IMG/VR virus record: IMGVR_UViG_3300013767_000039
Location: 1 to 46,303 of that record
Direction: 5' to 3' (one strand)
From: a virus
Length of the DNA: 46,303 nt
Below the pieces are notes generated by a model. That model made no database searches, was not told the DNA's origin, and saw only the letters and a program-made list of their open reading frames with translations. Positions 4,797 through 46,303 of the stretch are shown one piece after another. A program made the position numbers and the translations under genes. Positions within the stretch are counted from its first letter, which is position 1, and each line of letters begins with the position of its first letter.

Positions 4797-5103
4797 GTGT
4801 GACCTACTGACGAAGCACTATTTCTCTTCGGGCACGTATGCAAAGCAAATGACGCTGCCCAAGGGCTATGAGGCCCTGTCCCATGCCCACAAATATGACC
4901 ACCTTTCCATCCTTGGCAAAGGTCGCGTCATCGTCAAGACAGACGACACATCCAACGAATACGTAGCGCCAGCCTGCATAGAAATCAAGGCTGGCACCCA
5001 TCACAGCATTACGGCCCTTGAGGACGCAGTGTGGTTCTGCATCCACGCAACCACTGAAACGGACCCGGATGCAATCGACAAAGTTTTGATTCAGGAGGGC
5101 TGA
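4753..5103 (+). CDS. Small cupin-like protein (116 aa; GTG start, overlaps the upstream gene by 44 nt; start uncertain)
   Basis: LSHAHKYDHLSILGKGRV ... GTHHSITA resembles the two cupin His-containing motifs. No in-frame ATG occurs before residue 32. Confidence 0.45.
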   Translation: MSIHKRFKELRGTFECDLLTKHYFSSGTYAKQMTLPKGYEALSHAHKYDHLSILGKGRVIVKTDDTSNEYVAPACIEIKAGTHHSITALEDAVWFCIHATTETDPDAIDKVLIQEG

Positions 5104-5104
5104 T

Positions 5105-6235
5105 ATGCCGTGGGGTGTAGCTGCCGCAGCCGTTGGTGCTGCAGGCTCTATTATTGGTGGTCAAGAACAACAAAGTGCGGCTCAGACTGCAGCCAACAGC
5201 GCCAACTCGCCTTGGTCTGCAGCTCAGCCTTACATCCAGCAGGAATTCCAACCTGCTCAAGACGCCCTCAACACATCCCTAGGACGTGGGGCATACACAG
5301 GTCAGCGTACAGCGTCTCTTAACCCGTACCAGACCCAAGGTGCAAACCAGACTGCTGGGTACGTCAACCAGTTTGGCAACCAGATTCCTGGTCAGCTCTA
5401 CGGCGCTGGTATGGGTGCCCTGAGTAACGGTGCCAACTTCGCTAGCAACGCTCAGGGCCTGTACCAAGGTGCTCAGGCAGACCCTACGCAGCAGTTCCTA
5501 GGCACAGCTTCGCAATACGCTAACAACCCGTATGCGAACCAGATGATTGACTCGGCGAACCTTGACGTAAGCCGTGACCTCAACGAAACGCAACTGCCTA
5601 GCCTGGCACTGAACGCTGCAGGCGCTGGTAACACGAACAGTACTCGTACAGGTGTTGAATCGGCCGTCCTCCAGCGCAACGCTGCACAACAGATGGCGAA
5701 CACTGCGGCCAACATCCGGGGCACCTTGTTTAACAACGGGCTCTCCATGGCGCAGGGTCAATACAACCAGAACTTCAGCAACGCGCTGAATGCAAACCAA
5801 CAATTGAGTGGTCAGACGGCCCTAGGCCTCAACGCCATGAATGGTTCGCAGACGGCTGCTGGTAATAACTTTGACCAGATGAATGCTGCTGGTGGTCTGT
5901 ACCAGACGCAAAACCAGAATGAACTCAACGCTGCTCAACAGCAGTGGGCAGACCAGAACAACGTACCTATGGACCTCATTGGCAAGTACATGAGCGTCAT
6001 CAATGGTAGCTGGGGTGGTCAGCCGGTTGGCGTACCGAATAACACTGTCAGCAACGGCATCCAAGGTGCTCTTGGTGGTGCGGCGCTGGGCACTGGCCTG
6101 TCACAGAAGCTGGGTGGCTCTTTCGGCTGGGGCTCTAACCCGACTCAGGCACAGACTGCAGCCGCCTATGGCACTAACGAGGGCTCTCAGCAGACAGCGA
6201 TGCTCAACGCACAAGACGCTGGAATGTGGGGCTAA
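5105..6235 (+). CDS. Gln/Asn/Ala/Gly-rich virion protein (376 aa), a candidate internal/ejection protein
   Basis: AGGAGGG SD lies before the ATG. The composition is low-complexity Q/N/A/G. The gene sits upstream of the transglycosylase-bearing internal protein. Confidence 0.55.
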   Translation: MPWGVAAAAVGAAGSIIGGQEQQSAAQTAANSANSPWSAAQPYIQQEFQPAQDALNTSLGRGAYTGQRTASLNPYQTQGANQTAGYVNQFGNQIPGQLYGAGMGALSNGANFASNAQGLYQGAQADPTQQFLGTASQYANNPYANQMIDSANLDVSRDLNETQLPSLALNAAGAGNTNSTRTGVESAVLQRNAAQQMANTAANIRGTLFNNGLSMAQGQYNQNFSNALNANQQLSGQTALGLNAMNGSQTAAGNNFDQMNAAGGLYQTQNQNELNAAQQQWADQNNVPMDLIGKYMSVINGSWGGQPVGVPNNTVSNGIQGALGGAALGTGLSQKLGGSFGWGSNPTQAQTAAAYGTNEGSQQTAMLNAQDAGMWG

Positions 6236-11136: not shown

Positions 11137-12701
11137 GTGACGCCAAAGCTGTTAGGCGTAGGCTCTTTGAGGACTTTGAGTTTTACGCCAGACATGCTTT
11201 GAAGATACGGACGAAGGAAGGGACTGTTGTCCCCCTTGTCCTCAACGAAGCTCAAAAGCGTTTCTGTGAGGTTGTCATCAGACAGCTTCAGACCACCGGA
11301 AGAGTCCGTGTGGTGGTCCTCAAAGGACGACAGCAGGGATTGTCTACGGTCATTGAGGCCATTATCTATTGGTGGACATCCCAGCACAAAGCAGTAAAGG
11401 CAATCGTGATGACGCACCAGGGGGAGTCAACCAAGGCTCTCTTTGACATGGCAAAGCGGTATCACGAAAACTGCCCTGAAATCCTGCGCCCCAAAACCAA
11501 ATATTCAAGCCGTAAAGAGCTGGCCTTTGACATCCTAGACAGCAGCTACATGGTGGCTACTGCTGGTGGTGAAGGTGTTGGCCGTGGTGAAACGATTCAG
11601 CTAGCCCACATGTCTGAGGCTGCGTTTTACCCTCCTGCTTCGGCACGCGACAACATCAACGGTCTGCTACAGGCCATTCCCAATGCCAAGGGCTCCATGG
11701 TCTTCGTGGAGTCTACCGCCAACGGTATCGGCAACCCATTCCATGAGATATGGAGCAATGCGGTCAATGGAACCAACGAGTTTGAACCTGTATTCATCCC
11801 GTGGTTCATTCAGTCTGAATACCGCTTTGAAGTCCCTGAGAATTTCGAGCGTACCCCTGAAGAGGACAAGCTAGTTGAGGCCTACGGGCTGGACAACCAA
11901 CAGCTCATGTTCCGGCGTAAAAAGATTGCTGTGAACGGGCTGGAAATGTTCAACCAGGAATATCCAAACATCGCTGACGAAGCCTTTCTGACCTCAGGTA
12001 GGCCAGTGTTCAACCCACAGCAACTCCACGGACTGCTAGAGGAAGCACCAGACATCGTTGGACGCCTAGAGCTGATACAGGACGAATGGGAAGAGGCTAC
12101 CCGTGGTGACCTCATCCTGTACAAGCACATTGACCCTGGTGAGTCCTACTACATCGGTGCTGACGTTGCCATGGGTGTCCGTGGTGGCGACTGGTCAGTA
12201 GCTCAGGTGCTAGATAGTCATAAGAGACAGGTAGCAATCTACCGATCACAAGTACATCCAGACTATTTCGCAACGGTTCTGAACCACCTAGGGCACTTCT
12301 TTAACACTGCCCGTATTGCCGTAGAAAACAACAATCACGGCATCCTCACAAGCACCCGCCTAGGCAAAGACCTTGCCTATCCCAACCTCTACTTTGAGAC
12401 CTCCGTAGACAAGCAGACCGAAAACGAAACGGTCACCTACGGCTTCCGCACTACCGTCAAAACAAAGCCCTTGATTATCGACAAGCTGCGACAGGCTTTC
12501 CGAGAGAGGGACATTCAGGTCAACGATAAGACCACTCTACGTGAGTGCATGACTTACGTGGTGAAAGACGATGGGAAGCTGGAGGCCGAAGCGGGCTGCT
12601 TTGATGACTGCGTTATGTCACTGGCAATCGCCAATTTTATTCACGATGGTCGTTTCACCCCTGTTGAGGTGACAGATGACTTTTACATAGAGATGATTTG
12701 A
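11133..12701 (+). CDS. terL: Terminase large subunit (522 aa)
   Basis: Walker-A-like VLKGRQQGLST is present, and the C-terminal nuclease region has CFDDCVMSLAIA. Size and position before the portal gene fit. TTG start overlaps the terS stop. Confidence 0.9.
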   Translation: MSDAKAVRRRLFEDFEFYARHALKIRTKEGTVVPLVLNEAQKRFCEVVIRQLQTTGRVRVVVLKGRQQGLSTVIEAIIYWWTSQHKAVKAIVMTHQGESTKALFDMAKRYHENCPEILRPKTKYSSRKELAFDILDSSYMVATAGGEGVGRGETIQLAHMSEAAFYPPASARDNINGLLQAIPNAKGSMVFVESTANGIGNPFHEIWSNAVNGTNEFEPVFIPWFIQSEYRFEVPENFERTPEEDKLVEAYGLDNQQLMFRRKKIAVNGLEMFNQEYPNIADEAFLTSGRPVFNPQQLHGLLEEAPDIVGRLELIQDEWEEATRGDLILYKHIDPGESYYIGADVAMGVRGGDWSVAQVLDSHKRQVAIYRSQVHPDYFATVLNHLGHFFNTARIAVENNNHGILTSTRLGKDLAYPNLYFETSVDKQTENETVTYGFRTTVKTKPLIIDKLRQAFRERDIQVNDKTTLRECMTYVVKDDGKLEAEAGCFDDCVMSLAIANFIHDGRFTPVEVTDDFYIEMI

Positions 12702-17959: not shown

Positions 17960-20337
17960 TGGGAACCAGTTTCTTTTCCACGGCAGATGATGTCGATGAG
18001 CAAAGCTCTCCCGTAGGATTCTTTGGTCAGGTTGTGGGGCCAGAATTCAACACCACTGATGCCCTGCTGGAGACCTTAGATGCAAAGATTGTCACGGTGC
18101 AGGCCAGCTCGGATGCTGCTGTAGCTGCTGCGGCGGCTGCGGCGCTCTCGGAGGCTAACTCTGCAATCGCTGAGAGCAACATCTCCCAGCTCTCTCAGTC
18201 AGCATCCAACACCCTCAGCCTGGCTAACTCTGCAATCGCCACGGCAAACGCCACGGTAGCCAGCACCAACGCTGCAGCCACTTCAGCCACCAACAGTCAG
18301 ACTGCAGCAGCAGCCTCAGCAGGCCAAGCAGCCTCTAGTGCGACTGCAGCAGCCAACAGTGCTACCGCAGCCTCCAGCAGTCAGACTGCAGCAGCCGGGA
18401 GTGCCACTGCGGCATCCAGTAGCCAAACTGCAGCAGCAGGAAGTGCTACCGCAGCAGCCAACAGCGCCTCCAATGCTGCCTCTAGCGCGTCCTCTGCATC
18501 CACTCAGGCAACCAACAGTGCCTCTAGTGCAACTGCAGCAGCCAACAGCGCAACACAAGCGGCCTCTAGTGTCACTTCGGCGGCCACGCAGGCCAGCACT
18601 GCAACCAGTCAGGCAAACACTGCCACAACTCAGGCATCCAATGCTGCCTCTAGTGCGGCTGCAGCCCTGGCAAGTCAGAACGCAGCAGCCACCAGTGCAA
18701 CCAATAGCGCCAACTCGGCTACCGCATCGGCCAACAGTGCATCTCAAGCGTCTACCACTGCGGCGAACCTTAACGCCCTGCTGACGCTTCCCATCACCTC
18801 TACGGCGATGACCCTGACCGGCACTCAGTTCCTTAACGGGATCATTGAGTGTACTGGTGCCCTTACCGGCAACACCATCATCACGGTACCAGCTACGTCG
18901 CACCCGTTCATGTTGATCAACAACACCACGGGTAACTACACGCTGACCGTTCAGATGACCGGTGGAGGTCAGAGTGCCACGGTGGTCCAAGGGTACGCAG
19001 GGAATCTCTGCTGCGATGGTATCAACGGTGTCTATGCGGCCTCGTCGGCTGGTGGCAATGCCAATGCACAGTTGGTCCCTGTTACCCCTGTAGCAGGCGC
19101 TACGTTCATCTCCTTCGCTCACGTCCCTGGCTTTGCTTGGTTGATGCTGCGGGGGGTGTTCCTCGTTCCTGGAACCGACTATACGGACTCTGCTTCGGGC
19201 TTCACGCTCCAAGGGTTCTCTGCGGATGGTACCGAAGGCTTTGCGATCTTCTCGCTGAATACGGTCTCGATTGCCAATGCGCTGACTGCTGCGAGTCCTA
19301 CGATTTCCTCGGGAGCGCTTACGTTCCCTGATGGTTCCCAACAGAGCACTGCTCCTATGGGAAGGAATCGGATCATCAACGGTGACTTCCGAGTGGCGCA
19401 ATACCCCAATGCGTCACAGGCGTACGCCGCTGGGCAGCAAGGCTACTGTGGTCCTGACCGGTTCTACATTGGTAATGGTGCGGGCACTGGTGGCACGATG
19501 GCCCAATCGACTGCCACGATGACCATTGGTGGCCTTGTCGAGAACGCTGTGCAGCAATACGTAGGAACGCCGTTCACCAGCATTGCTGGCACTTCTGCCG
19601 CCTCGGGGGTAACTCAGGTCATTGAGGGATTCAATGCGTACGATCTGGTTGGTCAACAAGTAACCATCTCGTTCTGGTTCCAAGCCACTGTGGCCGGAAC
19701 GTACGGAGTCGCCCTTAGGGATGGTGCCACTAACTATGGGTACGCGACAACGTTCGCTTACAACACAGCAGGCACCCCGCAGCGAGTAGTTGTGACGGTC
19801 CCTGTGTTGCCCTCTGGAATGAGCGTCCCGCGTAGCAATACAGCCGGACTAACCCTCAACATCGGTGCCCTGAACACCGGCACGTATCAGAACCCAACAA
19901 CGGGAGCATGGTCCTCGGGTGGGAATTACTTCACCGCCCCTGGGGTAACCAACTGGTCCACGGTAACCAACAACTACATCGCCGTCGCAAGGCTCCAACT
20001 GGAAGCGGGAAACACCCTTAACCCGGTGTTTGAACGTGTGGATTACAGCGAGCAATTGAGGCGCTGCCTGCGGTACTTCAACAGCGGTTCGGCATGGGTT
20101 CAGCTAACAACCTACGCAGCAGCCTTGGCCTCAGCTAATCACGTCAGCTTCCCTGTAACGATGCGCTCCACCCCTGCGATGTCCATTACGCCTGCAGCGT
20201 TCGGTGGGGTTGGCTACATCTCGCCCAATACACATGACATCGATTCTTGGGGGTTTTCATATAACTTCAACACAGGTCAAGGTGTCAACACTACAGGCCG
20301 TGGTCAGTTGGTGTGGACAGCTAGCAGCGAATTCTAA
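17956..20337 (+). CDS. Tail fibre protein (793 aa) with a long Ala/Ser/Thr/Asn/Gln repeat shaft and a C-terminal receptor-binding-type domain
   Basis: About 230 aa of SATAASSSQTAAAG-type repeats (nt about 18090-18780). The C-terminal domain starts GRNRIINGDFRVAQ and carries EQLRRCLRYF, a pattern shared with the next gene. Confidence 0.8.
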   Translation: MMGTSFFSTADDVDEQSSPVGFFGQVVGPEFNTTDALLETLDAKIVTVQASSDAAVAAAAAAALSEANSAIAESNISQLSQSASNTLSLANSAIATANATVASTNAAATSATNSQTAAAASAGQAASSATAAANSATAASSSQTAAAGSATAASSSQTAAAGSATAAANSASNAASSASSASTQATNSASSATAAANSATQAASSVTSAATQASTATSQANTATTQASNAASSAAAALASQNAAATSATNSANSATASANSASQASTTAANLNALLTLPITSTAMTLTGTQFLNGIIECTGALTGNTIITVPATSHPFMLINNTTGNYTLTVQMTGGGQSATVVQGYAGNLCCDGINGVYAASSAGGNANAQLVPVTPVAGATFISFAHVPGFAWLMLRGVFLVPGTDYTDSASGFTLQGFSADGTEGFAIFSLNTVSIANALTAASPTISSGALTFPDGSQQSTAPMGRNRIINGDFRVAQYPNASQAYAAGQQGYCGPDRFYIGNGAGTGGTMAQSTATMTIGGLVENAVQQYVGTPFTSIAGTSAASGVTQVIEGFNAYDLVGQQVTISFWFQATVAGTYGVALRDGATNYGYATTFAYNTAGTPQRVVVTVPVLPSGMSVPRSNTAGLTLNIGALNTGTYQNPTTGAWSSGGNYFTAPGVTNWSTVTNNYIAVARLQLEAGNTLNPVFERVDYSEQLRRCLRYFNSGSAWVQLTTYAAALASANHVSFPVTMRSTPAMSITPAAFGGVGYISPNTHDIDSWGFSYNFNTGQGVNTTGRGQLVWTASSEF

Positions 20338-23071: not shown

Positions 23072-23198
23072 GCGTTGAGAGAATGGGTGGGGTTCCCCTA
23101 GGACAACATTGCCCGCAACTGAGAAAAGAAAACCTAGGAGTCCCCCGTTTTCAGAGCATAACGTCCCCAGCCAGAGGAAGCACACCCCAAAACTATAG

Positions 23199-23221
23199 TC
23201 CCCTTACGTGGGGATTTTTTT
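23199..23221 (+). terminator. Rho-independent terminator at the convergence of the two arms
   Basis: TCCCC-ttacgt-GGGGA hairpin followed by T7. It abuts the stop codon of the minus-strand gene at 23221. Confidence 0.6.
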
Positions 23222-23994
23222 CAATGTGGAGCCCTGAGCCTAGTCAGAGTCTCACGTAACTTCGTCATGCCTCCACCACAGCGGATGTAGTTCTCGCTGG
23301 CCTTGTAGAGGTTCCCATCGGTGCTGTGGTCTAGGAAGTCAGTCATGCCGATGATGTAGTCAGCCTCTGTCTTCCCATGGACGGCTGCAGCACTCCTGCC
23401 GCTATCCACGAACCTCATGTCTAGGTCTGGATACTCTTGGTTGATGATGCCTGCCTGCTGTGGCTTCAGGCCCACCACCAGCACCTTGAGCTGTCTTGTT
23501 TTGACTGGAGCTTTGAGGTTCAGCCCAGCGGTGTGCTTTACAACCCCTGAGAACTCCTGAGCTATCAGGCTCTCTAGGGACATCTTCACATGTGCTACGA
23601 ACTTCTCAGCGAACGCCGTAGCCAACTGCTCAACCAGAGAATCCAGAGAGCCCCCTAGGACAGGCTTGGGCTTGGGTGCCTCTGGTACTGATACGGGTTC
23701 CAAGGCCTCAACTTCAGGCTCAGTCTCTTCAACCTCTTCGACCACCTTGGGTGCTGCAGATAGTCCGGGCTTGTTCCCTCGCCTCTTCCACTCAGCGTCC
23801 AACTCTTCTATGAGCTTCTGTATATGGGCACGGGTGCCAATTGTCTTCCTGCGTTCCGGCTGGAACAGTGCAGCCTGCCCCATACGCGCCAGCTCTAGGA
23901 ATTCAGTACTGCTGCTTCGGATGTCTTTGGCTATGAGCCAGTCCACCATCTTAGCGGTCTCGTCTGTTTTCCAAAACACTCGCTTCTGTTTCAT
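23221..23994 (-). CDS. Hypothetical protein (257 aa) with a Pro/Glu-rich linker; the C-terminal domain resembles the DUF2325 pattern
   Basis: AGGAGG SD. The C-terminal KVLVVGLKPQQAG...ADYIIGMTDFLDHSTDG...IRCGGGMTKL resembles, from memory, the vl-vGG ... aD-vi-tD-vsH pattern. The function is unknown. Confidence 0.6.
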   Translation of the reverse strand: MKQKRVFWKTDETAKMVDWLIAKDIRSSSTEFLELARMGQAALFQPERRKTIGTRAHIQKLIEELDAEWKRRGNKPGLSAAPKVVEEVEETEPEVEALEPVSVPEAPKPKPVLGGSLDSLVEQLATAFAEKFVAHVKMSLESLIAQEFSGVVKHTAGLNLKAPVKTRQLKVLVVGLKPQQAGIINQEYPDLDMRFVDSGRSAAAVHGKTEADYIIGMTDFLDHSTDGNLYKASENYIRCGGGMTKLRETLTRLRAPH

Positions 23995-24167
23995 CTTATT
24001 GCCTCCTAACGCGGCGCAACTTTAAGCCTAAGCCTAAACGGGCGATTGACAGATTGGGACAATTTTTTTGCGGATCGTGACAATGTTACAAGAATATGTC
24101 AGGTGTGCTAGAGGGGTCTCCTAGGGTGCATCACATGGTGGTGGTGGGTGGTGTGAAGGTGCGATTG

Positions 24168-24358
24168 GTGAACGCTGGGGGTGGCGTTTGCGTTCACCTG
24201 GAAGAACGTAAAGACGTTCACGGGGACGGGTGTGGATAAGCTGTGGAAAGCCTGTGGATAGCCTGTGGATAGAGCCTCCACTGAAAAACCGTTGTGTTCA
24301 CCCCCGTGAACGTAAGAGGGTGTTTGCGTTCACCCCCGTGAACAGAACTATATATATA
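24168..24358. promoter_or_regulatory. Candidate replication origin: GTTCAC/GTGAAC palindromes, 11-bp-phased iterons and a (TA)5 tract
   Basis: GTGAAC at 24168 and GTTCAC at 24192 and 24216. Perfect 16-bp palindromes GTTCACCCCCGTGAAC at 24296-24311 and 24328-24343. TATATATATA at 24349-24358. The region is noncoding and lies directly 3' of the wHTH gene. Confidence 0.5.
24231..24271 (+). repeat. Four direct iterons TGTGGA(T/A)A spaced exactly 11 bp apart
   Basis: TGTGGA starts at 24231, 24242, 24253 and 24264 (tgtggataag ctgtggaaagc ctgtggatagc ctgtggatag). Confidence 0.85.
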
Positions 24359-24361
24359 CTT

Positions 24362-24931
24362 CTAAGACAGTAAACCATTGGAGCCTGGCGGAAGCTGTGG
24401 AAAACCATCGTCAGGGCTCCTAGGGATGTCTGAGGCAGGGATGGAAGCCCTCAGGAGGCCTGAAGAAGCGTCCCACACAAAACCGTCACCCGGAATGACC
24501 TCACAGGCAGCAAAGACCTCTGGTGAGGCCACATCCCCCTTAACCGCCTCCGATATGTCCGCTAGGGTCTTCCTGAGGGTTGCAGGCACGTAGTCCAGAA
24601 CGATCGTGCAAAGAACCCTCTCCCCTAGGCGAACATCCATACGCTCACGGGCTACGTAGGTACTCCCCCTCCCCCGGTTACCCTTGGTCACCACCCTAAG
24701 CAACCGGGCCTGCAAAAGGGTGTCCACGGACTTATGAACGGCTCCAACGGACAACCCTGTCATATCCCCAAGGCGGCGCATGGACGGCCAAGCCTCACCA
24801 CTCTCAAAATCGGCATGAGCCTTGACTGCCTGCCACACACCAAAGGCATTCATGCCAATCTGAGCGGCAAGACCAGAGGCGAACATATCGCGCTGCATGG
24901 TCTGGAAAGACGTGTCAATGCTGCTTTGCAT
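24362..24931 (-). CDS. Winged-helix DNA-binding protein (189 aa), a candidate replication initiator or regulator
   Basis: AWPSMRRLGDMTGLSVGAVHKSVDTLLQARLL is a typical wHTH segment of Rep/O-type initiators. The gene overlaps the upstream gene by 17 nt and is followed by the iteron region. Confidence 0.5.
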   Translation of the reverse strand: MQSSIDTSFQTMQRDMFASGLAAQIGMNAFGVWQAVKAHADFESGEAWPSMRRLGDMTGLSVGAVHKSVDTLLQARLLRVVTKGNRGRGSTYVARERMDVRLGERVLCTIVLDYVPATLRKTLADISEAVKGDVASPEVFAACEVIPGDGFVWDASSGLLRASIPASDIPRSPDDGFPQLPPGSNGLLS

Positions 24932-25454
24932 GTCCTCCCTCCCGCTCAGTGATGAAGCGGTCTACCTCAGCGTCCACCAGGCGCTCAACCATCTTCTGAA
25001 AACTGATGCCCCCCGGCACTTGCTCCATGTACCACTGCATTTTCCGGTACAGGGCCTCACGCATACGGAAGGTGACCCCCGTGGTCTTCAGGCTCTCAAG
25101 GACATCCGGGTCTTGCCACGGGAATTTGGCAGTCTTCTTGGCCTCAGCCCTAGCCTGCTCCCGGAGCTTCGCAAGCTGGGCCTCAGCTTCCTCAAGCGTG
25201 GTGGGCTGTTGAGAGGCCTGATTAGCTTGCAAAGGGGTGATCTGCTTGGGCCTGTGGTGGGAACGCTTCACAGCGGCCTTAGAAGCCCCCACAGGCGCTT
25301 TTTCAGAGGCAGGGGCCACAGGGGTAGCCACATGGGCCTCCGTGGGCTCTACGGGGCTCTGAGGGGCCTCCACGGGGCTCTGTGAGGTTTCCCCTTGAAT
25401 GAAGGCGGCCAGTGCCTCTGGCTTGGGGGTAGTCCCCATCTTGAACTTAGACAT
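24915..25454 (-). CDS. Candidate centromere-binding partner of ParA (179 aa), with a ribbon-helix-helix-like C-terminus
   Basis: Overlaps the parA stop by 8 nt. GVTFRMREALYRKMQWYMEQ has a strand-helix pattern like ParG/RHH proteins. The N-terminus is disordered and contains QSPVE repeats. Confidence 0.4.
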   Translation of the reverse strand: MSKFKMGTTPKPEALAAFIQGETSQSPVEAPQSPVEPTEAHVATPVAPASEKAPVGASKAAVKRSHHRPKQITPLQANQASQQPTTLEEAEAQLAKLREQARAEAKKTAKFPWQDPDVLESLKTTGVTFRMREALYRKMQWYMEQVPGGISFQKMVERLVDAEVDRFITEREGGHAKQH

Positions 25455-26118
25455 TCAGAAGCTCCTTGAGGAAAGCGGCCATGTCTTCCTTGGCTGCTTG
25501 GGTGCTCTTGGAATACTCCAGCACACCCATCCCGAAGAAAGAGGCCTCACGGAAGCTGTCACGGCCTTTGATTTCAGTCTCCATGACCTTGTAGTTCGCA
25601 TAAGACTGCAGAGCTTCACGGGCGTCTGAGGCTTTCATAGAACCTGCATTAGTGCTGCAGACATTCAGGACGGCCAAGCTAATCAACTCAGGGTTCTGGA
25701 GCAGCACGTCATAAATGAGGTTGTTATTGTCCTCGAATGTATTGAGGTCAATTGGACTCGGTTGACACGGGCTGATGAGAAAGTCTGAAACAGCCGTTGC
25801 TGCTCTGAACTCTCTCATGTTCTTACCGGGTGGGCAATCAACTACCACATCATCATAGTCTTCGGCCATCTTGCGTATGCTAGTAGCTACATACAAAGGA
25901 GCTTGTGGGTTATGACGTAATTTAACACACATGAACTGGCTGAGATGCGGTTGGGTGGAACGTGCTTGAACTAGCTTGTACACACCATCTTGGTCATCCG
26001 TATCAAGGACTAGCACCTTACGTCCAAGGTTAGCCAAGTATGTTGCAACATTGAGTGTGAGAGTAGTTTTACCCACACCACCTTTAACGCAACCAAACGT
26101 ATAAATAGACATGCTCAT
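25447..26118 (-). CDS. parA: ParA/Soj-type partition ATPase (223 aa; the real start is probably ATG 26112)
   Basis: Deviant Walker A GCVKGGVGKTTLT is present, and the size is typical of type Ib ParA. AGGAG lies 7 nt before the ATG at 26112. Confidence 0.9.
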   Translation of the reverse strand: MSMSIYTFGCVKGGVGKTTLTLNVATYLANLGRKVLVLDTDDQDGVYKLVQARSTQPHLSQFMCVKLRHNPQAPLYVATSIRKMAEDYDDVVVDCPPGKNMREFRAATAVSDFLISPCQPSPIDLNTFEDNNNLIYDVLLQNPELISLAVLNVCSTNAGSMKASDAREALQSYANYKVMETEIKGRDSFREASFFGMGVLEYSKSTQAAKEDMAAFLKELLNV

Positions 26119-26144
26119 GCTCCTATGGCTGGGGAAGGGACTTC

Positions 26145-26173
26145 ATGTTAGTGCATGGAATGCACACCGTCAA
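26145..26173 (-). promoter_or_regulatory. Sigma70-like promoter for the parA operon, with an operator-like palindrome in the spacer
   Basis: The minus strand reads TTGACG-17 nt-TAACAT. The spacer contains the perfect inverted repeat GTGCAT-tcc-ATGCAC (26151-26165). Confidence 0.45.
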
Positions 26174-26185
26174 GTATCTATTACT

Positions 26186-26210
26186 TTGCTATAGTATGCT
26201 ATTATAGCAA
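26186..26210. promoter_or_regulatory. TGCTAT/ATAGCA half-site cluster upstream of the par promoter (candidate parS or operator)
   Basis: TTGCTATA-gtatgctat-TATAGCAA: an 8-bp inverted repeat with a third TGCTAT in the spacer. The same hexamers cluster at 28572-28611. Confidence 0.4.
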
Positions 26211-26239
26211 GTACATTAAAAGGGCAGGGTGCCCTAGGG

Positions 26240-26605
26240 TTACATACGACTCAGCAGCGCATCAGACTCAGCAATGGCCTTTTGAATGGAAAGCACCACA
26301 CGATGTAAGACCGTAGCATGGCCTTCCTCAGCCTGCTTCCACGTTCTATAGCGTTCGCAATGACCGTCCATAGGACCACCGAACACCATGGTCTCGTATA
26401 GGACAGGAGAGGGATTGGTAGGATCGAAGTTATGGTCAAGGCCTAGGAAAACCGTTGATACACTACAGTCTTCTGCGGGGTGGTCTTCAGCTACCCTACG
26501 GTCTGCGGTCTCAAACCATTTGGCCCAAGAGAGCATGTCACTGCAGGGCAGCGCACGCCTCCCGTGGAGCTTGTAGTAGCGCGGTTTAGCGAACATCATT
26601 TTCAA
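26240..26605 (-). CDS. Hypothetical protein (about 119-121 aa; ATG at 26599 likely)
   Basis: Clean ORF. The VSTVFLGLDHNF...YETMVFGG...RYRTWKQAEEGH pattern looks like a conserved phage protein of unknown function. Confidence 0.65.
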   Translation of the reverse strand: MKMMFAKPRYYKLHGRRALPCSDMLSWAKWFETADRRVAEDHPAEDCSVSTVFLGLDHNFDPTNPSPVLYETMVFGGPMDGHCERYRTWKQAEEGHATVLHRVVLSIQKAIAESDALLSRM

Positions 26606-26783
26606 TCTGGTCTGCGAGGTTCCTCAGGAGCTGGGGGAGGTTCATTTGGATTTCCATGGGCGCCTGAACACTGAAGCCCGACCCGTGAATCCCCTTAAAG
26701 ACCATGAGGACGATTCCTTGGGCTCCTGTTGACTGTCGGGCTGCTGTGCAGGCGTTATCATATTTGCCTGGGCCGATTGGCAT
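26586..26783 (-). CDS. Hypothetical protein (65 aa)
   Basis: GGAGA lies 7 nt before ATG 26783. It overlaps the 3' part of ORF 26642..26989 in another frame and overlaps the next gene start. Confidence 0.45.
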   Translation of the reverse strand: MPIGPGKYDNACTAARQSTGAQGIVLMVFKGIHGSGFSVQAPMEIQMNLPQLLRNLADQIENDVR

Positions 26784-26989
26784 TCTCTGTTCTCCGGATG
26801 GGTGACGATGACTTGCCCAGCCTCAAAGGCGTTGCGGCACTGCTGGCCTAGCACCTTGCGGTCTGTGGGGTCATCATGGTTCATGACGTAGCTACGCAGG
26901 GGCTCCATGTCGTTCCTGAAGTCCCACAGGGAGGCGTAGACCATCACACGGACTCTGAGCGGATTTGACATAAGCTTTATTATGCGCAT
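26642..26989 (-). CDS. Hypothetical protein (start uncertain: GTG 27001, ATG 26989 or ATG 26971)
   Basis: The N-terminal about 70 aa look coding. The C-terminal about 45 aa are low-quality and overlap the 65-aa ORF. Confidence 0.45.
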   Translation of the reverse strand: MRIIKLMSNPLRVRVMVYASLWDFRNDMEPLRSYVMNHDDPTDRKVLGQQCRNAFEAGQVIVTHPENRECQSAQANMITPAQQPDSQQEPKESSSWSLRGFTGRASVFRRPWKSK

Positions 26990-26997
26990 CTGACAGA

Positions 26998-27228
26998 TCA
27001 CTCACGGGGAGGGCGCTCTTTGGTGATGTCCTCAAAGAACTGGCGGTCAGCTTCAGCCATTCGCCTTTCGTGTCTCACGTGCGCCCACAGCATCCCTAGG
27101 GCTGAGAGACCACTCACTACGGAAAGGCCAGTGTTGCCCCAATACAGGTTGAGGAAGCACATCAGCACGTTGAAGATGCCCACCAGATCGAACGTCAGTT
27201 TCGGGAGCAACGGGAGTTTCATGGTCAT
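26998..27228 (-). CDS. Small membrane protein (76 aa, two TMDs)
   Basis: The TMDs are LVGIFNVLMCFLNLYW and LSVVSGLSALGMLWA, followed by a charged C-terminus. Confidence 0.6.
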   Translation of the reverse strand: MTMKLPLLPKLTFDLVGIFNVLMCFLNLYWGNTGLSVVSGLSALGMLWAHVRHERRMAEADRQFFEDITKERPPRE

Positions 27229-27234
27229 TGTTCG

Positions 27235-27504
27235 TCATCTTTGAACCACCGATTTAATCGGACGCTTGACCCACCCCAAGGCGCTGTAGTTGTCTGCGCA
27301 CTCATTGATTTCCGCTTGCGCGATAATGGGGAAGAGCCCTGGCGTGATGTTCGTGCAAAGGTGTGTTTGGCCTGTCTGTGGATTCTGCATCATGGCGGGA
27401 GTGGTACAGCCAGCCAGCAGGGTTACTGCAGCAATCAACACGGCACGCATAAGGCTCCTTGGTCGGTAAAGGGGACGCACATCGTTGCTGAAATCATCAG
27501 TCAT
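27235..27504 (-). CDS. Lipoprotein (89 aa)
   Basis: Signal peptide with lipobox LLAG-C (AAVTLLAGCTT). The start is ATGA-coupled to the upstream small ORF. Confidence 0.7.
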   Translation of the reverse strand: MTDDFSNDVRPLYRPRSLMRAVLIAAVTLLAGCTTPAMMQNPQTGQTHLCTNITPGLFPIIAQAEINECADNYSALGWVKRPIKSVVQR

Positions 27505-27656
27505 CGGGTGTTCTCCCTCAGCTCACGGGCAACCCATTTGCCCCATCCAAGGAATGCTACACCCACCAAAGCCCCACGCAGAATCTGGTACACCGGCCAC
27601 AGCGCCATGCGCGCCAGTACCTTGTGGGGCGCGTTCATGTTCTTTTTCATCATCAT
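27501..27656 (-). CDS. Small membrane protein (51 aa; MMMKKNMNAPHKVLARMALWPVYQILRGALVGVAFLGWGKWVARELRENTR), below the track cutoff
   Basis: Hand-translated. The ATG overlaps the integrase stop (ATGA) and AGGAGAG lies upstream. Its stop overlaps the lipoprotein ATG (ATGA). Confidence 0.5.
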   Translation of the reverse strand: MMMKKNMNAPHKVLARMALWPVYQILRGALVGVAFLGWGKWVARELRENTR

Positions 27657-28474
27657 CTGGTCTCTCTCCTAACGATCCTCTTGAGGTCTGCCGTGGACAG
27701 GTGGGCGTACCTCTTGGTGGTCTCAATGTTTTCATGACCCAAGAATTCCTTGACGGCCATGATGTTCCCTGAGTCTGCCAGCAGTCGGGTTGCAGCCGTG
27801 TGACGGAGGATATGCAGGACAAAATCAGCATCGTCCTCCATCCCCATGGCCGTCCTCAGGCGTTTCCAGAGCTGGTCAATCTTATTCTTGTTCAAGGTGA
27901 ACGGCAGGGCACCCTTCAGGGCTTCTATAGCCGTGTCAGTCAGGGGCACCACGCGGCTCTTGCCTGTCTTAGTGTCGGGAGCCCACAGGTGTACCTCATC
28001 CCCACGGACATCCTTGGGCTTGAGATTCACCAGCTCCCCACGGCGCATCCCGGTCTCAATCAGGACGGTAACGAAGCGGGCAAACTCAAACTCGCCCCAT
28101 GCCTCCAGCAGGGCCATCATCTGCCGCTCTTCCTCAGGCTCAATCCAGCGGATGCGCCCCTCAGGTTCATCGTAGAACTTGATTTTGGGCATTCGCTCAA
28201 TCCAGTCCCGATCATGTGCGAACTTGAGCACCTGAAAGATATTCACCAGCTTGCGATTAACCGTGCTGTCCTTAATGGTGCCGCGGACCTCACGCAACCA
28301 AGCGTCAATGGACAGGGTGGTGACCTCAGCCAGCTTGAGGTTCCCTACCACGTCAATGAAGCCCTCCACGTTGCGGTAAGCCGTCTTTTCGTAGGCCTTA
28401 CCCATCCACAGGTCTTTGGCGCAATACCGCAGAAGTTCCTTCAGATTCGCTGGCGCTTTCATGGTGACGGCCAT
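27653..28474 (-). CDS. int: Tyrosine recombinase/phage integrase (273 aa)
   Basis: ETGMRRGELVNL (Arg I), HILRHTAATRLL (H-x-x-R) and LGHENIETTKRYAHL (catalytic Tyr) are present. GGGAGGG SD. Confidence 0.9.
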   Translation of the reverse strand: MAVTMKAPANLKELLRYCAKDLWMGKAYEKTAYRNVEGFIDVVGNLKLAEVTTLSIDAWLREVRGTIKDSTVNRKLVNIFQVLKFAHDRDWIERMPKIKFYDEPEGRIRWIEPEEERQMMALLEAWGEFEFARFVTVLIETGMRRGELVNLKPKDVRGDEVHLWAPDTKTGKSRVVPLTDTAIEALKGALPFTLNKNKIDQLWKRLRTAMGMEDDADFVLHILRHTAATRLLADSGNIMAVKEFLGHENIETTKRYAHLSTADLKRIVRRETR

Positions 28475-28506
28475 TGTAACCCTCCCGTTACGTTTAAGTC
28501 TAGCTT

Positions 28507-28543
28507 AAAAAAATGAGACACCTAAGTTACTCAGGTATCTCAT
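28507..28543 (-). terminator. Rho-independent-type terminator just upstream of int
   Basis: The minus strand reads ATGAGAtACCT-gagtaactt-AGGTgTCTCAT followed by T7, only about 30 nt before the int start. Confidence 0.5.
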
Positions 28544-28571
28544 CGTAGTACATCACTGCTACTGGTGTCAA

Positions 28572-28611
28572 GCTATGCGCTATCGGTTGCTATGATAGCA
28601 GACTATAGCAA
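28572..28611. promoter_or_regulatory. Second cluster of GCTAT/ATAGC half-sites
   Basis: aGCTATgcGCTATcggtTGCTATgATAGCAgacTATAGCAA: five half-sites, including the palindrome TGCTAT-g-ATAGCA. It shares TATAGCAA/TTGCTAT with 26186-26210. Confidence 0.35.
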
Positions 28612-40945: not shown

Positions 40946-40980
40946 AAAGTGCAACCTTCAATCATACATGGTTGCACCTT
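40946..40980. promoter_or_regulatory. Inverted repeat or hairpin in the divergent control region
   Basis: AAaGTGCAACC-13 nt-GGTTGCACcTT: an 8-bp perfect core (40949-40956 / 40970-40977), extendable to 11 bp with one mismatch. Confidence 0.4.
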
Positions 40981-41259: not shown

Positions 41260-43242
41260 ATGGAGAACCCAAGTATTAACCCTAGCCTTAGAGCACAGCT
41301 AATCACTCGCCGTACCTACAACCGACCCAAGGACGACCAAGGGAAAACCTTTGAGACTTGGGAAGAGACTGTTGACCGTGTGATTGGTCATCAAGCCTGG
41401 TTGTGGGAGAGAGCCAAAGGCTATCACCTGAGTTTTGGTGACTGTGTTGAGCTGCATGAGCTGCGCCAACTGATGCTGGACCGTAAGGTGCTGATGTCAG
41501 GCCGAACCCTGTGGCTGGGTGGTACTGAGGTTGCCAAGAGGCGTGAAGCAAGCCAGTTCAATTGCTCCTTCACTCAGGTAGAGACCGTGCAGGATGCCGT
41601 GGATGTTCTATGGCTCCTGATGCAGGGCTGTGGCGTTGGCTTCCGTCCTGTGGTGGGTCAGCTCACAGGCTTTCGTAAGCCCATTGAAGAGCTGGAGATT
41701 ATCCGTAGCACCCGTACATCCAAGGGTGGTCAGGAACACAACACTGAGACCTTTGAGGATGGAGTCTGGACAATCAAAATTGGTGACAGTGCTGAGGCCT
41801 GGTCAAAGTCTGTTGGAAAACTGCTGGCCCATCCGTATGCCGCCCATAAACTTGTACTCGATTTCTCAGAGATACGTCCGACAGGAGAACGCCTCAAGGG
41901 GTACGGTTGGATTAGTTCCGGAGACCAAAGCATTGCCGTAGCCTATGAAGCTCTCTTCAAAATCCTCAATCGTCGTGCTGGCTCTCTGCTGTCTCGCATT
42001 GACATCCTCGATGTCGTCAACTGGCTTGGAACGATTCTATCTAGCCGCCGCTCTGCGGAAATCGCCCTCTTTGCCTATGGTGAGGATGAGTGGCAAGAGT
42101 TTGCGGTAGCCAAGAAAGACTGGTGGGTCACCAACGTACAGCGTGCCCAATCGAACAACAGTCTGCTGTTCAACACCAAGCCTACCCGCAGTGAGCTGGA
42201 GGGCATCTTTGACTTGATGGTCCAGTCTGGTGGTAGTGAACCAGGCTTCATCAATGGTCAGGCAGCAACGAAGCGAGCCCCATGGTTCAAGGGCGTCAAC
42301 CCCTGTGCGGAAATTCTGCTGGGCCAGAAGAGTTTTTGTAACTTGACTGACATTGACGTTGCCAAGTTCAAGGGTGACAGCAATGGTCTCCGTAGGGCCA
42401 TTGAGGTTGCAGCACGGGCGAACTATCGTCAGACGTGTGTCAATCTCAAGGATGGCATCCTGCAGGAGGCCTGGCACCTCAACAATGACTTCCTGAGGCT
42501 CTGTGGTGTTGGTCTGACTGGTGTAGCCCGTAGGCCTGACCTCACGGCTTATGACTACCAGGAGCTGCAGCGCACGGCTGTCCATGGTGCCTATAGCATG
42601 GCCGATGAGCTGGGCACCCCACGCCCAAAGAACGTCACCACCATCAAACCATCGGGAACCCTGAGCAAGATCATGGATACGACTGAGGGCGTCCATCGGC
42701 CCCTTGGCAAGTACATCCTGAACAACGTCAACTTCGGTGTGCATGACCCCATCGTGCCCCTGTGTCGTGCTGCAGGCTACAAGGTAGTCCCCAACCCGGT
42801 AGACGGCTCCAGCGTCCTCATCACCATCCCCGTGGCTTGGGAGGATGTCCCGTTTAGCAAGGTCATCAAGAATGGTGTTGAGCTGGAGGTAAATCTTGAG
42901 TCTGCTGTAGAGCAGCTTGAGCGTTACCGGATGCTGATGCAGAGCTGGTGTCAGCAGAATGTGTCAGCCACCATCAGCTATGGTCCTGAGGAAGTGCCAG
43001 CAATCATTGATTGGCTGCTGGAGCATTGGGACAACTATGTCGGTGTGAGCTTCCTGTTCCGTGCTGACCCTACCAAGACCGCAGAAGACTTGGGCTACAA
43101 GTACCTGCCCCAAGAGGTCACCACCAAGGCAGTCTATGAGGCCTATACGGCCACTCTCCAGCCGATCAAACTTGACCAGGCGAACAGCTTGGATGAGCTG
43201 GAGGAAGACCCTTGTGCTACTGGTGCCTGCCCTATTCGGTAG
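41260..43242 (+). CDS. nrdJ: Class II (adenosylcobalamin-type) ribonucleotide reductase-like protein (660 aa)
   Basis: Active-site block GVNPCAEILLGQKSFCNLTDI (NPC-x-E ... CNL) is present. The N-terminal ITRRTYNR and the C-terminal Cys pair CATGAC fit. The class assignment comes from monomeric size and motifs only. Confidence 0.8.
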   Translation: MENPSINPSLRAQLITRRTYNRPKDDQGKTFETWEETVDRVIGHQAWLWERAKGYHLSFGDCVELHELRQLMLDRKVLMSGRTLWLGGTEVAKRREASQFNCSFTQVETVQDAVDVLWLLMQGCGVGFRPVVGQLTGFRKPIEELEIIRSTRTSKGGQEHNTETFEDGVWTIKIGDSAEAWSKSVGKLLAHPYAAHKLVLDFSEIRPTGERLKGYGWISSGDQSIAVAYEALFKILNRRAGSLLSRIDILDVVNWLGTILSSRRSAEIALFAYGEDEWQEFAVAKKDWWVTNVQRAQSNNSLLFNTKPTRSELEGIFDLMVQSGGSEPGFINGQAATKRAPWFKGVNPCAEILLGQKSFCNLTDIDVAKFKGDSNGLRRAIEVAARANYRQTCVNLKDGILQEAWHLNNDFLRLCGVGLTGVARRPDLTAYDYQELQRTAVHGAYSMADELGTPRPKNVTTIKPSGTLSKIMDTTEGVHRPLGKYILNNVNFGVHDPIVPLCRAAGYKVVPNPVDGSSVLITIPVAWEDVPFSKVIKNGVELEVNLESAVEQLERYRMLMQSWCQQNVSATISYGPEEVPAIIDWLLEHWDNYVGVSFLFRADPTKTAEDLGYKYLPQEVTTKAVYEAYTATLQPIKLDQANSLDELEEDPCATGACPIR

Positions 43243-46088: not shown

Positions 46089-46147
46089 GGACTTTTTAAG
46101 CACAACTTAAAACATGTGTTGTGCATCTAAGCCCTCGCCTCACAACC

Positions 46148-46174
46148 CCCGGTTCAAATCTGGAACCCTTCACC
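46148..46174 (+). other. tRNA 3'-end-like fragment (T-arm plus acceptor strand), a candidate attP core
   Basis: CCCGG-TTCAAAT-CTGGA (the canonical GGTTCAAATC T-loop context; 4 of 5 stem pairs), then ACCCTTC-A-CC. No matching 5' half exists, so it is not a tRNA gene. Confidence 0.3.
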
Positions 46175-46176
46175 TG

Positions 46177-46303
46177 GTCAACTCTGGTCGTTGTCTTGCG
46201 TCAACTCTGGTCGTTGTCTTGCGTCAACTCTGGTCGTTGTCTTGCGTCAACTCTGGTCGTTGTCTTGCGTCAACTCTGGTCGTTGTCTTGCGTCAACTCT
46301 GGT
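46177..46303. repeat. Right terminal tandem array of the same 23-mer (a 22-nt unit, 4 full units and a 13-nt partial unit)
   Basis: Read directly: 46177-46198, 46199-46221, 46222-46244, 46245-46267, 46268-46290 and a partial unit at 46291-46303. Confidence 0.97.

Follow-up and report, generated by a model that had tools for sequence, protein, structure and literature searches.

A plasmid-type partition and replication module in a podovirus with a T7-type RNA polymerase points to a phage-plasmid

The IMG/VR record IMGVR_UViG_3300013767_000039, a viral contig of 46,303 bp that was analysed whole and is called the window here, carries a maintenance block at 23221-28543 on its minus strand, in which the genes of a small tyrosine recombinase (Int), a ParA-type ATPase with its partner, and a winged helix-turn-helix (wHTH) protein (Rep) followed by iterons lie together with several membrane protein and lipoprotein genes (Table 1). 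The block had been outlined by an earlier reading of the sequence alone, and all of these genes were found where that sequence-only reading had placed them, after the T7-like replication genes and on the same strand; its central observation, that a plasmid module adjoins an integrase in a phage with a T7-type RNA polymerase (RNAP), held. T7-like phages are the textbook example of strictly lytic phages; the recognition of temperate relatives that bear an integrase is recent, and debate about their lysogeny continues.

The set of virion, packaging, lysis and phage replication genes, the phage half of any phage-plasmid, is complete. The plus strand carries, from 975 to 23071, the genes for tail fibres, ejection proteins, terminase (TerL), an SU10-type portal, scaffold, major capsid protein and endolysin; the minus strand, read from 40770 to 23221, carries those for the T7-type RNAP, a gp2.5-like single-stranded-DNA-binding protein, endonuclease, thymidylate synthase, primase-helicase, DNA polymerase, methyltransferase, 5'-3' exonuclease and MazG. 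The portal and the major capsid protein are of the SU10/phiEco32/LUZ24 type (the best isolate relatives of the portal are just 30% identical), and with an RNAP of the Autographiviridae kind joined to a portal of the phiEco32/SU10/LUZ24 kind, the phage is a mosaic that falls outside the canonical T7 family. It shares with Autographiviridae the single-subunit RNAP but neither the T7-type structural module nor the one-strand T7 gene order, as two convergent blocks join at ~23.2 kb and a ribonucleotide reductase gene stands on the opposite strand. A repeated T7-type phage promoter motif was not evident in a genome-wide direct-repeat search. The first and last 105 bases of the contig are identical and made of a 23-bp tandem repeat, and the window therefore overlaps itself at its ends, has no host flanks and appears to be a complete genome. 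This perfect repeat (CGTCAACTCTGGTCGTTGTCTTG, at least 5.5 copies per end, at 1-127 and 46177-46303 around the 105-bp end overlap) lies between the divergent early block and the tail-fibre block, and it may mark a terminus or pac region of the genome, may be a further array of iterons or a centromere, or may simply have led the assembler to close the circle.

The wHTH gene encodes a putative replication initiator of 189 amino acids (aa), on most homologues of which PF13730 is precomputed. The region that follows it is organised, as judged from its sequence, like a DnaA-dependent plasmid origin of the iteron type: after the stop codon, along the minus strand, come a TATATATATA stretch, two 16-bp palindromes GTTCACGGGGGTGAAC spaced 32 bp, four DnaA-box-like 11-mers in 11-bp phase, one of which is a perfect TTATCCACA, and GTGAACG half-sites. 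The two iterons are perfect copies and the window holds no further perfect one; a scan allowing zero to three mismatches gave three matches versus 0.54 expected, the third of them, with three mismatches, at 42285-42300. The layout is conserved, in that 22 of 26 rep loci have an AT-rich stretch, iterons and one or two perfect TTATCCACA boxes within 450 nt after rep, with the boxes at +54 to +133 (about 0.003 perfect boxes per locus expected by chance), while the iteron sequence varies with the Rep sublineage; a Rep variant that is 30% identical (RepB) is followed by the same layout. As in Rep_3-type plasmids, iterons, DnaA boxes and an AT-rich region adjoin the gene, and the window would in this way combine a plasmid-type initiator with an origin of its own, as phage-plasmids do.

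The Rep family comprises 320 metagenomic homologues (the 120 matches listed are all at least 58% identical), and homologues of ~64% identity were found in mobilisable plasmid contigs of ~35 kb that carry genes for a type IV (T4) coupling protein, a NikA/MobC relaxase and ParE toxins or toxin-antitoxin pairs, in the gene order parA-85 aa-rep. The Rep homologue is the sole initiator candidate in the 20 kb seen of these plasmid contigs, and rep genes were always linked to parA in the contexts examined. A search of host genomes and plasmid databases for the element had been proposed by the sequence-only reading; these metagenomic plasmids answer it in part, and on the side of the reference collections Rep gave no tblastn match in INPHARED or PLSDB, and so has no cultured reference, and megablast of the whole block against INPHARED returned nothing. 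The proposal that the combination is unrecorded was borne out likewise, as no such set was found in isolated phages or sequenced plasmids. In the same sample series, unrelated lambdoid-type phages (L004-L007 and L017-L022, with NinB, RusA and Sipho_Gp157) carry parA-81 aa-rep with the same origin layout and a Rep that is 69-70% identical; they are candidates for a second phage-plasmid lineage with the same replicon. A more distant homologue (47% identical) lies with three iterons in a Methylophilaceae metagenome-assembled genome (MAG; JAYVMU010000026.1, L013 8960-10603), on an island directly after tRNA-Gly and tRNA-Cys and downstream of uvrC-pgsA, the first 60 nt of which hold ATAGCAA/TTGCTAT half-sites resembling the palindrome of the window described below.

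These observations bear on whether the 189-aa protein might instead be a transcriptional repressor or copy regulator, with the repeats as its operators and with ParA and its partner serving positioning or exclusion, in a phage that is integrative or effectively lytic and has no plasmid state. We consider this quite improbable. Perfect DnaA boxes at a fixed distance and the AT-rich stretch are kept in the 22 of 26 loci though the iterons diverge, which fits an origin and not an operator, and both the constant linkage to parA and the place of the gene as sole initiator candidate in the plasmid contigs argue the same way, even if fold and sequence searches yield generic wHTH regulators only, some sources label homologues as a GntR-type regulator or a biotin operon repressor, and T7-like cyanophages are described as integrating without true lysogeny (PMC8776855).

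The second half of the plasmid module is the partition locus. ParA (223 aa) is a small deviant-Walker-A ATPase without an N-terminal DNA-binding domain, as in type Ib systems, with the motif KGGVGKT at residues 12-18 (read from the sequence) and a full-length match to NF041546. Its matches among isolated phages (the best 25 of 130 INPHARED records) are known plasmid-prophages, for example D6, KS14, phiSG1 and the parABS mycobacteriophages, and there is no T7-like phage among these 25. Overlap of the partner gene with the stop codon of parA and with the rep start points to translational coupling. Over its C-terminal 100 residues the 179-aa partner is homologous (E 1e-15 to 1e-17) to a ~97-aa protein encoded after Int throughout the clade, prophages that lack ParA included; relatives in which the ~97-aa gene is separate have an additional partner of 81-115 aa after parA, with ribbon-helix-helix-like motifs, a gene that the window and its closest relative, the contig L023, lack. 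The N-terminal peptide of the partner, KPEALAAFIQGE in the window and KPNLLDQAAAEFL in L023, resembles the tails of plasmid ParG-like partners (KPNLDPMAFIEGS in the plasmid partner), and we read the protein as a putative chimeric partner.

A 25-bp palindrome, TTGCTAT-N11-ATAGCAA, occurs in exactly two copies in the genome, each just upstream of a sigma-70-like promoter, that of int and that of parA, and these two places are also the strongest GCTAT/ATAGC clusters of the genome; an exact-pattern scan of IMG/VR for it gave unrelated chance matches only. L023, the sole other genome with the long-partner arrangement, carries another palindrome, GTTGTACAAC, at both of these positions, and relatives with a separate ParG-like gene have a palindrome at int only. 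Most simply, both the int and the parA operon would be controlled by a single protein, probably the 179-aa partner, which may use the palindrome arrays as centromere. The two sites could also be substrates of the small recombinase, with possible inversion of the 2.4-kb int segment (26210-28587), or with one site acting like dif or lox in multimer resolution: an arrangement of 9-bp arms around a 7-bp spacer is typical of tyrosine-recombinase core sites, the sites are the only two in the genome and flank int, Int scores best against Xer-type recombinases, and by reading the copies are 23/25 identical in inverted but ~18/25 in direct orientation. Very little credence can be given to this idea, as each site stands just upstream of a -35 box and one array is lengthened by extra ATAGC pentamers, which gives them the look of an operator or centromere; the different palindrome at the same two promoter positions of L023 is more easily explained by a shared regulator, and no relative with an inverted segment was found.

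Comparison with relatives places the module in a variable slot. Int homologues of 27-45% identity are encoded immediately upstream of the RNAP gene (as in pelagiphages and LUZ100), and those of at least 50% identity, on 34 viral contigs, follow the order DNA polymerase-exonuclease-(MazG)-Int-65 aa-~97-aa protein, after which comes a slot before the convergent lysis genes. This slot is occupied by ParA with a RepA-type Rep in 12 contigs, by ParA with the RepB variant in 7 and by a second, 420-460-aa integrase of the DUF6538 type in 9 (6 unassigned); the plasmid module and the second integrase occurred together in none of the 34. B-type ParA (73% identical to the ParA of the RepB module) is combined with A-type Rep (58%) in L186 and L029, indicating shuffling inside the plasmid module. 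Free genomes of the integrase-2 type have a recognisable attP between the ~97-aa gene and integrase 2 (L210 9495-9740; L204 9493-9679), with the core ATCTCYTGGGCACCA, flanking inverted repeats GTCCTTGATTC/GAATCAAGG and arrays of GTTAYCACC repeats; the core recurs at the prophage-host junction of Paraburkholderia phymatum (L054 ~11500-11530) and again 160 nt further.

The integrated relatives that we found, in Burkholderia sp. DN3021, B. vietnamiensis and, as a decayed copy, P. phymatum (L052, L054, L174 and L178), are all of the integrase-2 type and lie in contigs of 102-154 kb with host flanks; past the ~98-aa gene at one end and past integrase 2 at the other, the genes are those of the host. 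They resemble the window in Int (57-59% identical), in the major capsid protein (63%) and in the order of replication genes, Int, 65-aa and ~98-aa protein with convergent SU10-type structural genes, and differ in that a 426-aa DUF6538-type second integrase stands where the window has ParA, partner, Rep and oriV; they have no ParA or Rep. The att core was also sought as a direct repeat between the ends of the DN3021 prophage, where only matches of at most 10 nt, at chance level, appeared, and that prophage shares no flank with the window. Genomes of the ParA-Rep type were seen only on contigs of at most 46 kb, and among the related contigs none was seen inside a larger one. Since the module occupies the same position as the integration cassette, it appears to replace integration. 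The suggestion that a plasmid module had been captured therefore holds for the module itself and fails as a one-off capture, the module being a conserved content of a variable 'lysogeny slot' across the clade; nor did synteny support a recent insertion, as the block holds that conserved slot in related contigs and its G+C content equals that of the remaining genome, as expected of a long-resident module. The likely hosts are Burkholderiales-type Betaproteobacteria, judging from Rep homologues in Polaromonas, Rhodoferax and Methylophilaceae MAGs and from the prophages in Burkholderia.

The small recombinase, which has its top scores against Xer-type recombinases, is an older gene that the whole clade shares at 50-60% identity. 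All catalytic residues are intact (R144, K169, H221, R224, H247 and Y256, invariant in an alignment with 12 homologues), and int does not look like an inactive remnant. Its operon contains small genes without family matches in profile searches; the lipoprotein and membrane calls among them were made by reading the sequence (a lipobox, LLAGC, and hydrophobic helices, respectively), and homologues of the 121-, 65- and 76-aa products are present in L023 at a different position. In the window and in L023 (~5085-5115) a strong hairpin with a T-run separates the promoter of int from its start codon, whereas other relatives have a terminator ahead of the promoter; the placement after the promoter suggests that this sublineage controls int by attenuation or antitermination.

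Whether this enzyme integrates the phage is central to the dual lifestyle suggested by the sequence-only reading, in which the small Int would insert the genome at some attB while par-rep-ori maintains non-integrated or excised copies, the prophage alternating between the two states. The complete active site and the conservation of Int accord with it, and so does the fact that the same small-integrase family provides the only integrase of the classical integrase-bearing T7-like phages, some of which are reported to integrate (10.1101/410191; PMC8776855). In L208, L209 and L212-214, moreover, the small Int abuts the lysis genes and there is no other lysogeny gene, the Rep-bearing island of the Methylophilaceae MAG is integrated at tRNA-Cys beside uvrC-pgsA, and recombinases that alternate between plasmid and integrated states are allowed by the literature (PMC7969092). 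However, no attP was found in the window, which has no tRNA or tRNA fragment and lacks all attP core and arm motifs of the relatives, and no genome of the ParA-Rep type was seen within a larger contig. A T-arm-like string at ~46140-46175 was considered as a tRNA-derived attP and rejected, as nothing was found there by ARAGORN or by Rfam scans, whether run at gathering thresholds or permissively. Homologues of the small Int (57-59% identity) do adjoin prophage-host junctions in Burkholderia, but the other junction is flanked by the second, large integrase with arm-type repeats, and the small Int need not integrate; with a large integrase and its own attP in the integrated relatives, the small Int is not proven to be the integrating enzyme of the clade. 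We regard the dual lifestyle as possible but on balance unlikely. Of the earlier suggestion of integrated-or-plasmid persistence, the plasmid side is favoured by the presence of the module and the alternation is not, since the integrated relatives are without ParA-Rep and have a second large integrase with attP.

Taken together, we conclude with moderate confidence that the block is a plasmid-prophage maintenance module and that this podovirus with a T7-type RNAP is a phage-plasmid, which probably lives on in the host as a plasmid of low copy number. During lysogeny, the HTH_36-type Rep would bind the iterons just downstream of its own gene and, jointly with DnaA of the host bound at the four phased boxes, open the adjoining AT-rich stretch for theta-type replication, and ParA with the 179-aa partner would segregate the copies. 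The partner probably binds both GCTAT/ATAGC palindrome arrays and would then be centromere-binding protein and common regulator of the int and parA operons at once. Lytic growth would depend on the separate T7-like RNAP, primase-helicase and DNA polymerase. Lying in the slot of the large integrase and attP, the module would substitute for integration, and the small recombinase most likely resolves multimers here or gives an optional integration route.

Several points weigh against this account. A sequence profile search of the PDB and a Foldseek search with Rep gave, in place of characterised initiators, only generic winged-helix regulators (E about 1e-2), and its AlphaFold2 (AF2) model (predicted local distance difference test (pLDDT) 78) shows a single winged helix with a small C-terminal domain in place of the two winged-helix domains of RepA, RepE and pi; nor does Rep match Rep_3. 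With the architecture of the adjoining origin, this would make Rep a protein that works like an iteron initiator and is not filed in the Rep_3 family. The homologue in the tRNA-Cys-integrated island shows that Rep and iterons are not exclusive to plasmids. A ribbon-helix-helix fold of the partner was suspected by eye, its C-terminal fold has no Pfam or PDB support, and its DNA binding and the centromere remain putative. Most of the related contigs come from a narrow JGI sample set, and the slot counts are accordingly not independent; a circular metagenomic contig is equally compatible with virion DNA; phage-plasmids are typically without integrases (PMC12977533), whereas an intact Int is kept here; and no lysogeny repressor of the CI, Cro or MarR type was found in Pfam scans of the early-region and other small open reading frames or in family searches.

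The absence of a recognisable CI/Cro pair agrees with the sequence-only reading; the three switch candidates that it named in their stead did not stand. The 189-aa wHTH protein is read here as replication initiator, profile searches gave no HTH evidence for the 65-aa product, and the 257-aa protein belongs to a DUF2325-type family without a repressor signature (535 representatives; PF10087 match in 13 of 28 aligned members), with no significant match in a PDB fold search and a 36% identical homologue encoded after rep in L023. The unique 8-bp inverted repeat GTGCAACC-N13-GGTTGCAC upstream of the RNAP gene is a candidate operator, at which a repressor could switch off the phage polymerase.

A bolder scenario, which we put forward as speculation and consider rather doubtful, is that a clade of T7-RNAP podoviruses of freshwater and soil Burkholderiales has a lysogeny-mode slot in which integrase-attP and par-rep-ori cassettes are swapped, that in the lineage of the window the DNA-binding protein of the phage's int operon gained a ParA-stimulating tail and now binds the centromere, and that the small recombinase alternates chromosomal and plasmid states.

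Table 1. Coordinates of the maintenance block and of related features in the 46,303-bp window.
Feature	Position	Strand	Details
Bidirectional terminator-like hairpin	23197-23216	.	Between convergent lysis block (+) and maintenance block (-)
257-aa protein	23221-23994	-	N-terminal three-helix domain, linker, long helix, C-terminal DUF2325-like alpha/beta domain (AF2 pLDDT 86)
oriV-like region	24180-24363	-	AT-rich 24344-24363; iterons 24328-24343 and 24296-24311; four phased DnaA-box repeats 24231-24272; GTGAACG half-sites 24180-24225
Rep, wHTH (HTH_36-type) putative replication initiator, 189 aa	24362-24931	-	Weak HTH_36 and O-like initiator N-terminus matches
179-aa ParA partner	24915-25454	-	Overlaps parA stop and rep start
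ParA, small deviant-Walker-A partition ATPase, type Ib-like	25447-26118	-	phrog_164 E=6e-40; NF041546 E=1.6e-37
parA control region	26145-26210	-	Sigma-70-like promoter 26173-26145, preceded by 25-bp palindrome 26186-26210
Terminator-like hairpin closing int operon	26221-26235	-	
int operon small genes	26240-27656	-	121 aa 26240-26605; 65 aa 26586-26783; 76-aa membrane 26998-27228; 89-aa lipoprotein 27235-27504; 51-aa membrane 27501-27656
Small Xer-like tyrosine recombinase/integrase (Int), 273 aa	27653-28474	-	PF00589 E=7e-28; phrog_1 E=1e-48
int control region	28512-28611	-	Second palindrome copy 28587-28611; promoter TTGACA-N18-TACGAT 28571-28542; 15-pair hairpin and T-run 28544-28512 before int start
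T7-type single-subunit RNAP, 810 aa	38338-40770	-	37% identity over 99% of length to Ralstonia/Bordetella Autographiviridae RNAPs
Unique 8-bp inverted repeat	40949-40977	-	Over predicted -10, in 490-bp gap upstream of RNAP gene

Elsewhere in the genome, the 660-aa ribonucleotide reductase gene (41260-43242, plus strand) runs against the flow of transcription between the early genes and the RNAP gene. The adjacent tail-fibre genes at 975-1691 and 1700-2293 are alike over their first ~53 nt (74% identity), fall in the same PHROG families and look like a duplicated or alternative receptor-binding pair, and a 793-aa tail-fibre gene contains a long run of degenerate 21-bp (7-aa) repeats at 18277-18757.

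Phage-plasmids themselves are known; what would be new is one with T7-type expression and replication, a lifestyle for which we found no literature report among T7-type phages. If the account is correct, a partitioned, low-copy plasmid phage with a T7-type RNAP extends phage-plasmids to a new virion and expression type, and raises the regulatory question of how a self-amplifying single-subunit RNAP stays silent in a multicopy episome. One backbone with three alternative cassettes (large integrase with attP, ParA-RepA and ParA-RepB) would offer a natural experiment on integrative versus episomal lysogeny, and the Rep family, with its 320 metagenomic homologues and its absence from plasmid and phage reference collections, would mark an unsampled replicon type of freshwater Betaproteobacteria.

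Among known systems, the phage-plasmids P1, N15, SSU5 and D6 (PMC7969092, PMC12977533) share with the window a complete tailed-phage genome combined with a plasmid initiator, an origin and ParA-type partition, the phage genes being conserved and the plasmid module variable or exchanged; P1 also keeps a tyrosine recombinase (Cre, in P1 for multimer resolution), whereas the recombinase of the window is a small integrase typical of temperate T7-like phages. The catalogued phage-plasmids include no T7-like type and few podoviruses (PMC7969092, PMC12977533), and unlike them the window has T7-type lytic functions (single-subunit RNAP and gp4/gp5-like replication) and a Rep family absent from PLSDB and INPHARED. 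The slot of this clade has a parallel in cluster A and other parABS mycobacteriophages (PMC7157519), where, within one phage lineage, one slot likewise holds either an integration cassette or a partition (and RepA-like) system, giving integrating versus extrachromosomal prophages; these are siphoviruses of Actinobacteria with ParA/ParB-parS partition, while the window retains its small integrase beside the plasmid module and has an origin of the iteron and DnaA-box type.

The integrase-bearing T7-like phages, such as LUZ100 (PMC10134795), HTVC019P-type pelagiphages (10.1101/410191), T7-like cyanophages (PMC8776855) and Ralstonia/Rhizobium podoviruses, share the T7-type RNAP and replication genes and a small integrase 33-37% identical to that of the window. 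Their int lies directly upstream of the RNAP gene in genomes with one gene direction and without ParA, Rep or an iteron origin, whereas in the window it stands at the end of the replication block, with SU10/phiEco32-type structural genes on the opposite strand and the plasmid module following. Integrated RNAP-encoding prophages have been noted in Variovorax (VarioGold and Burkholderia gladioli prophage papers), and these papers contain no relevant element similar to the window. Finally, the Rep_3 iteron plasmids (pPS10 RepA, F RepE and R6K pi) resemble the window in an initiator gene that adjoins direct and inverted iterons, DnaA boxes, an AT-rich stretch and a par operon; the Rep of the window differs from their initiators in its length of 189 aa, its single HTH_36-type winged helix with a small C-terminal domain and the lack of a structural match to RepE or RepA.

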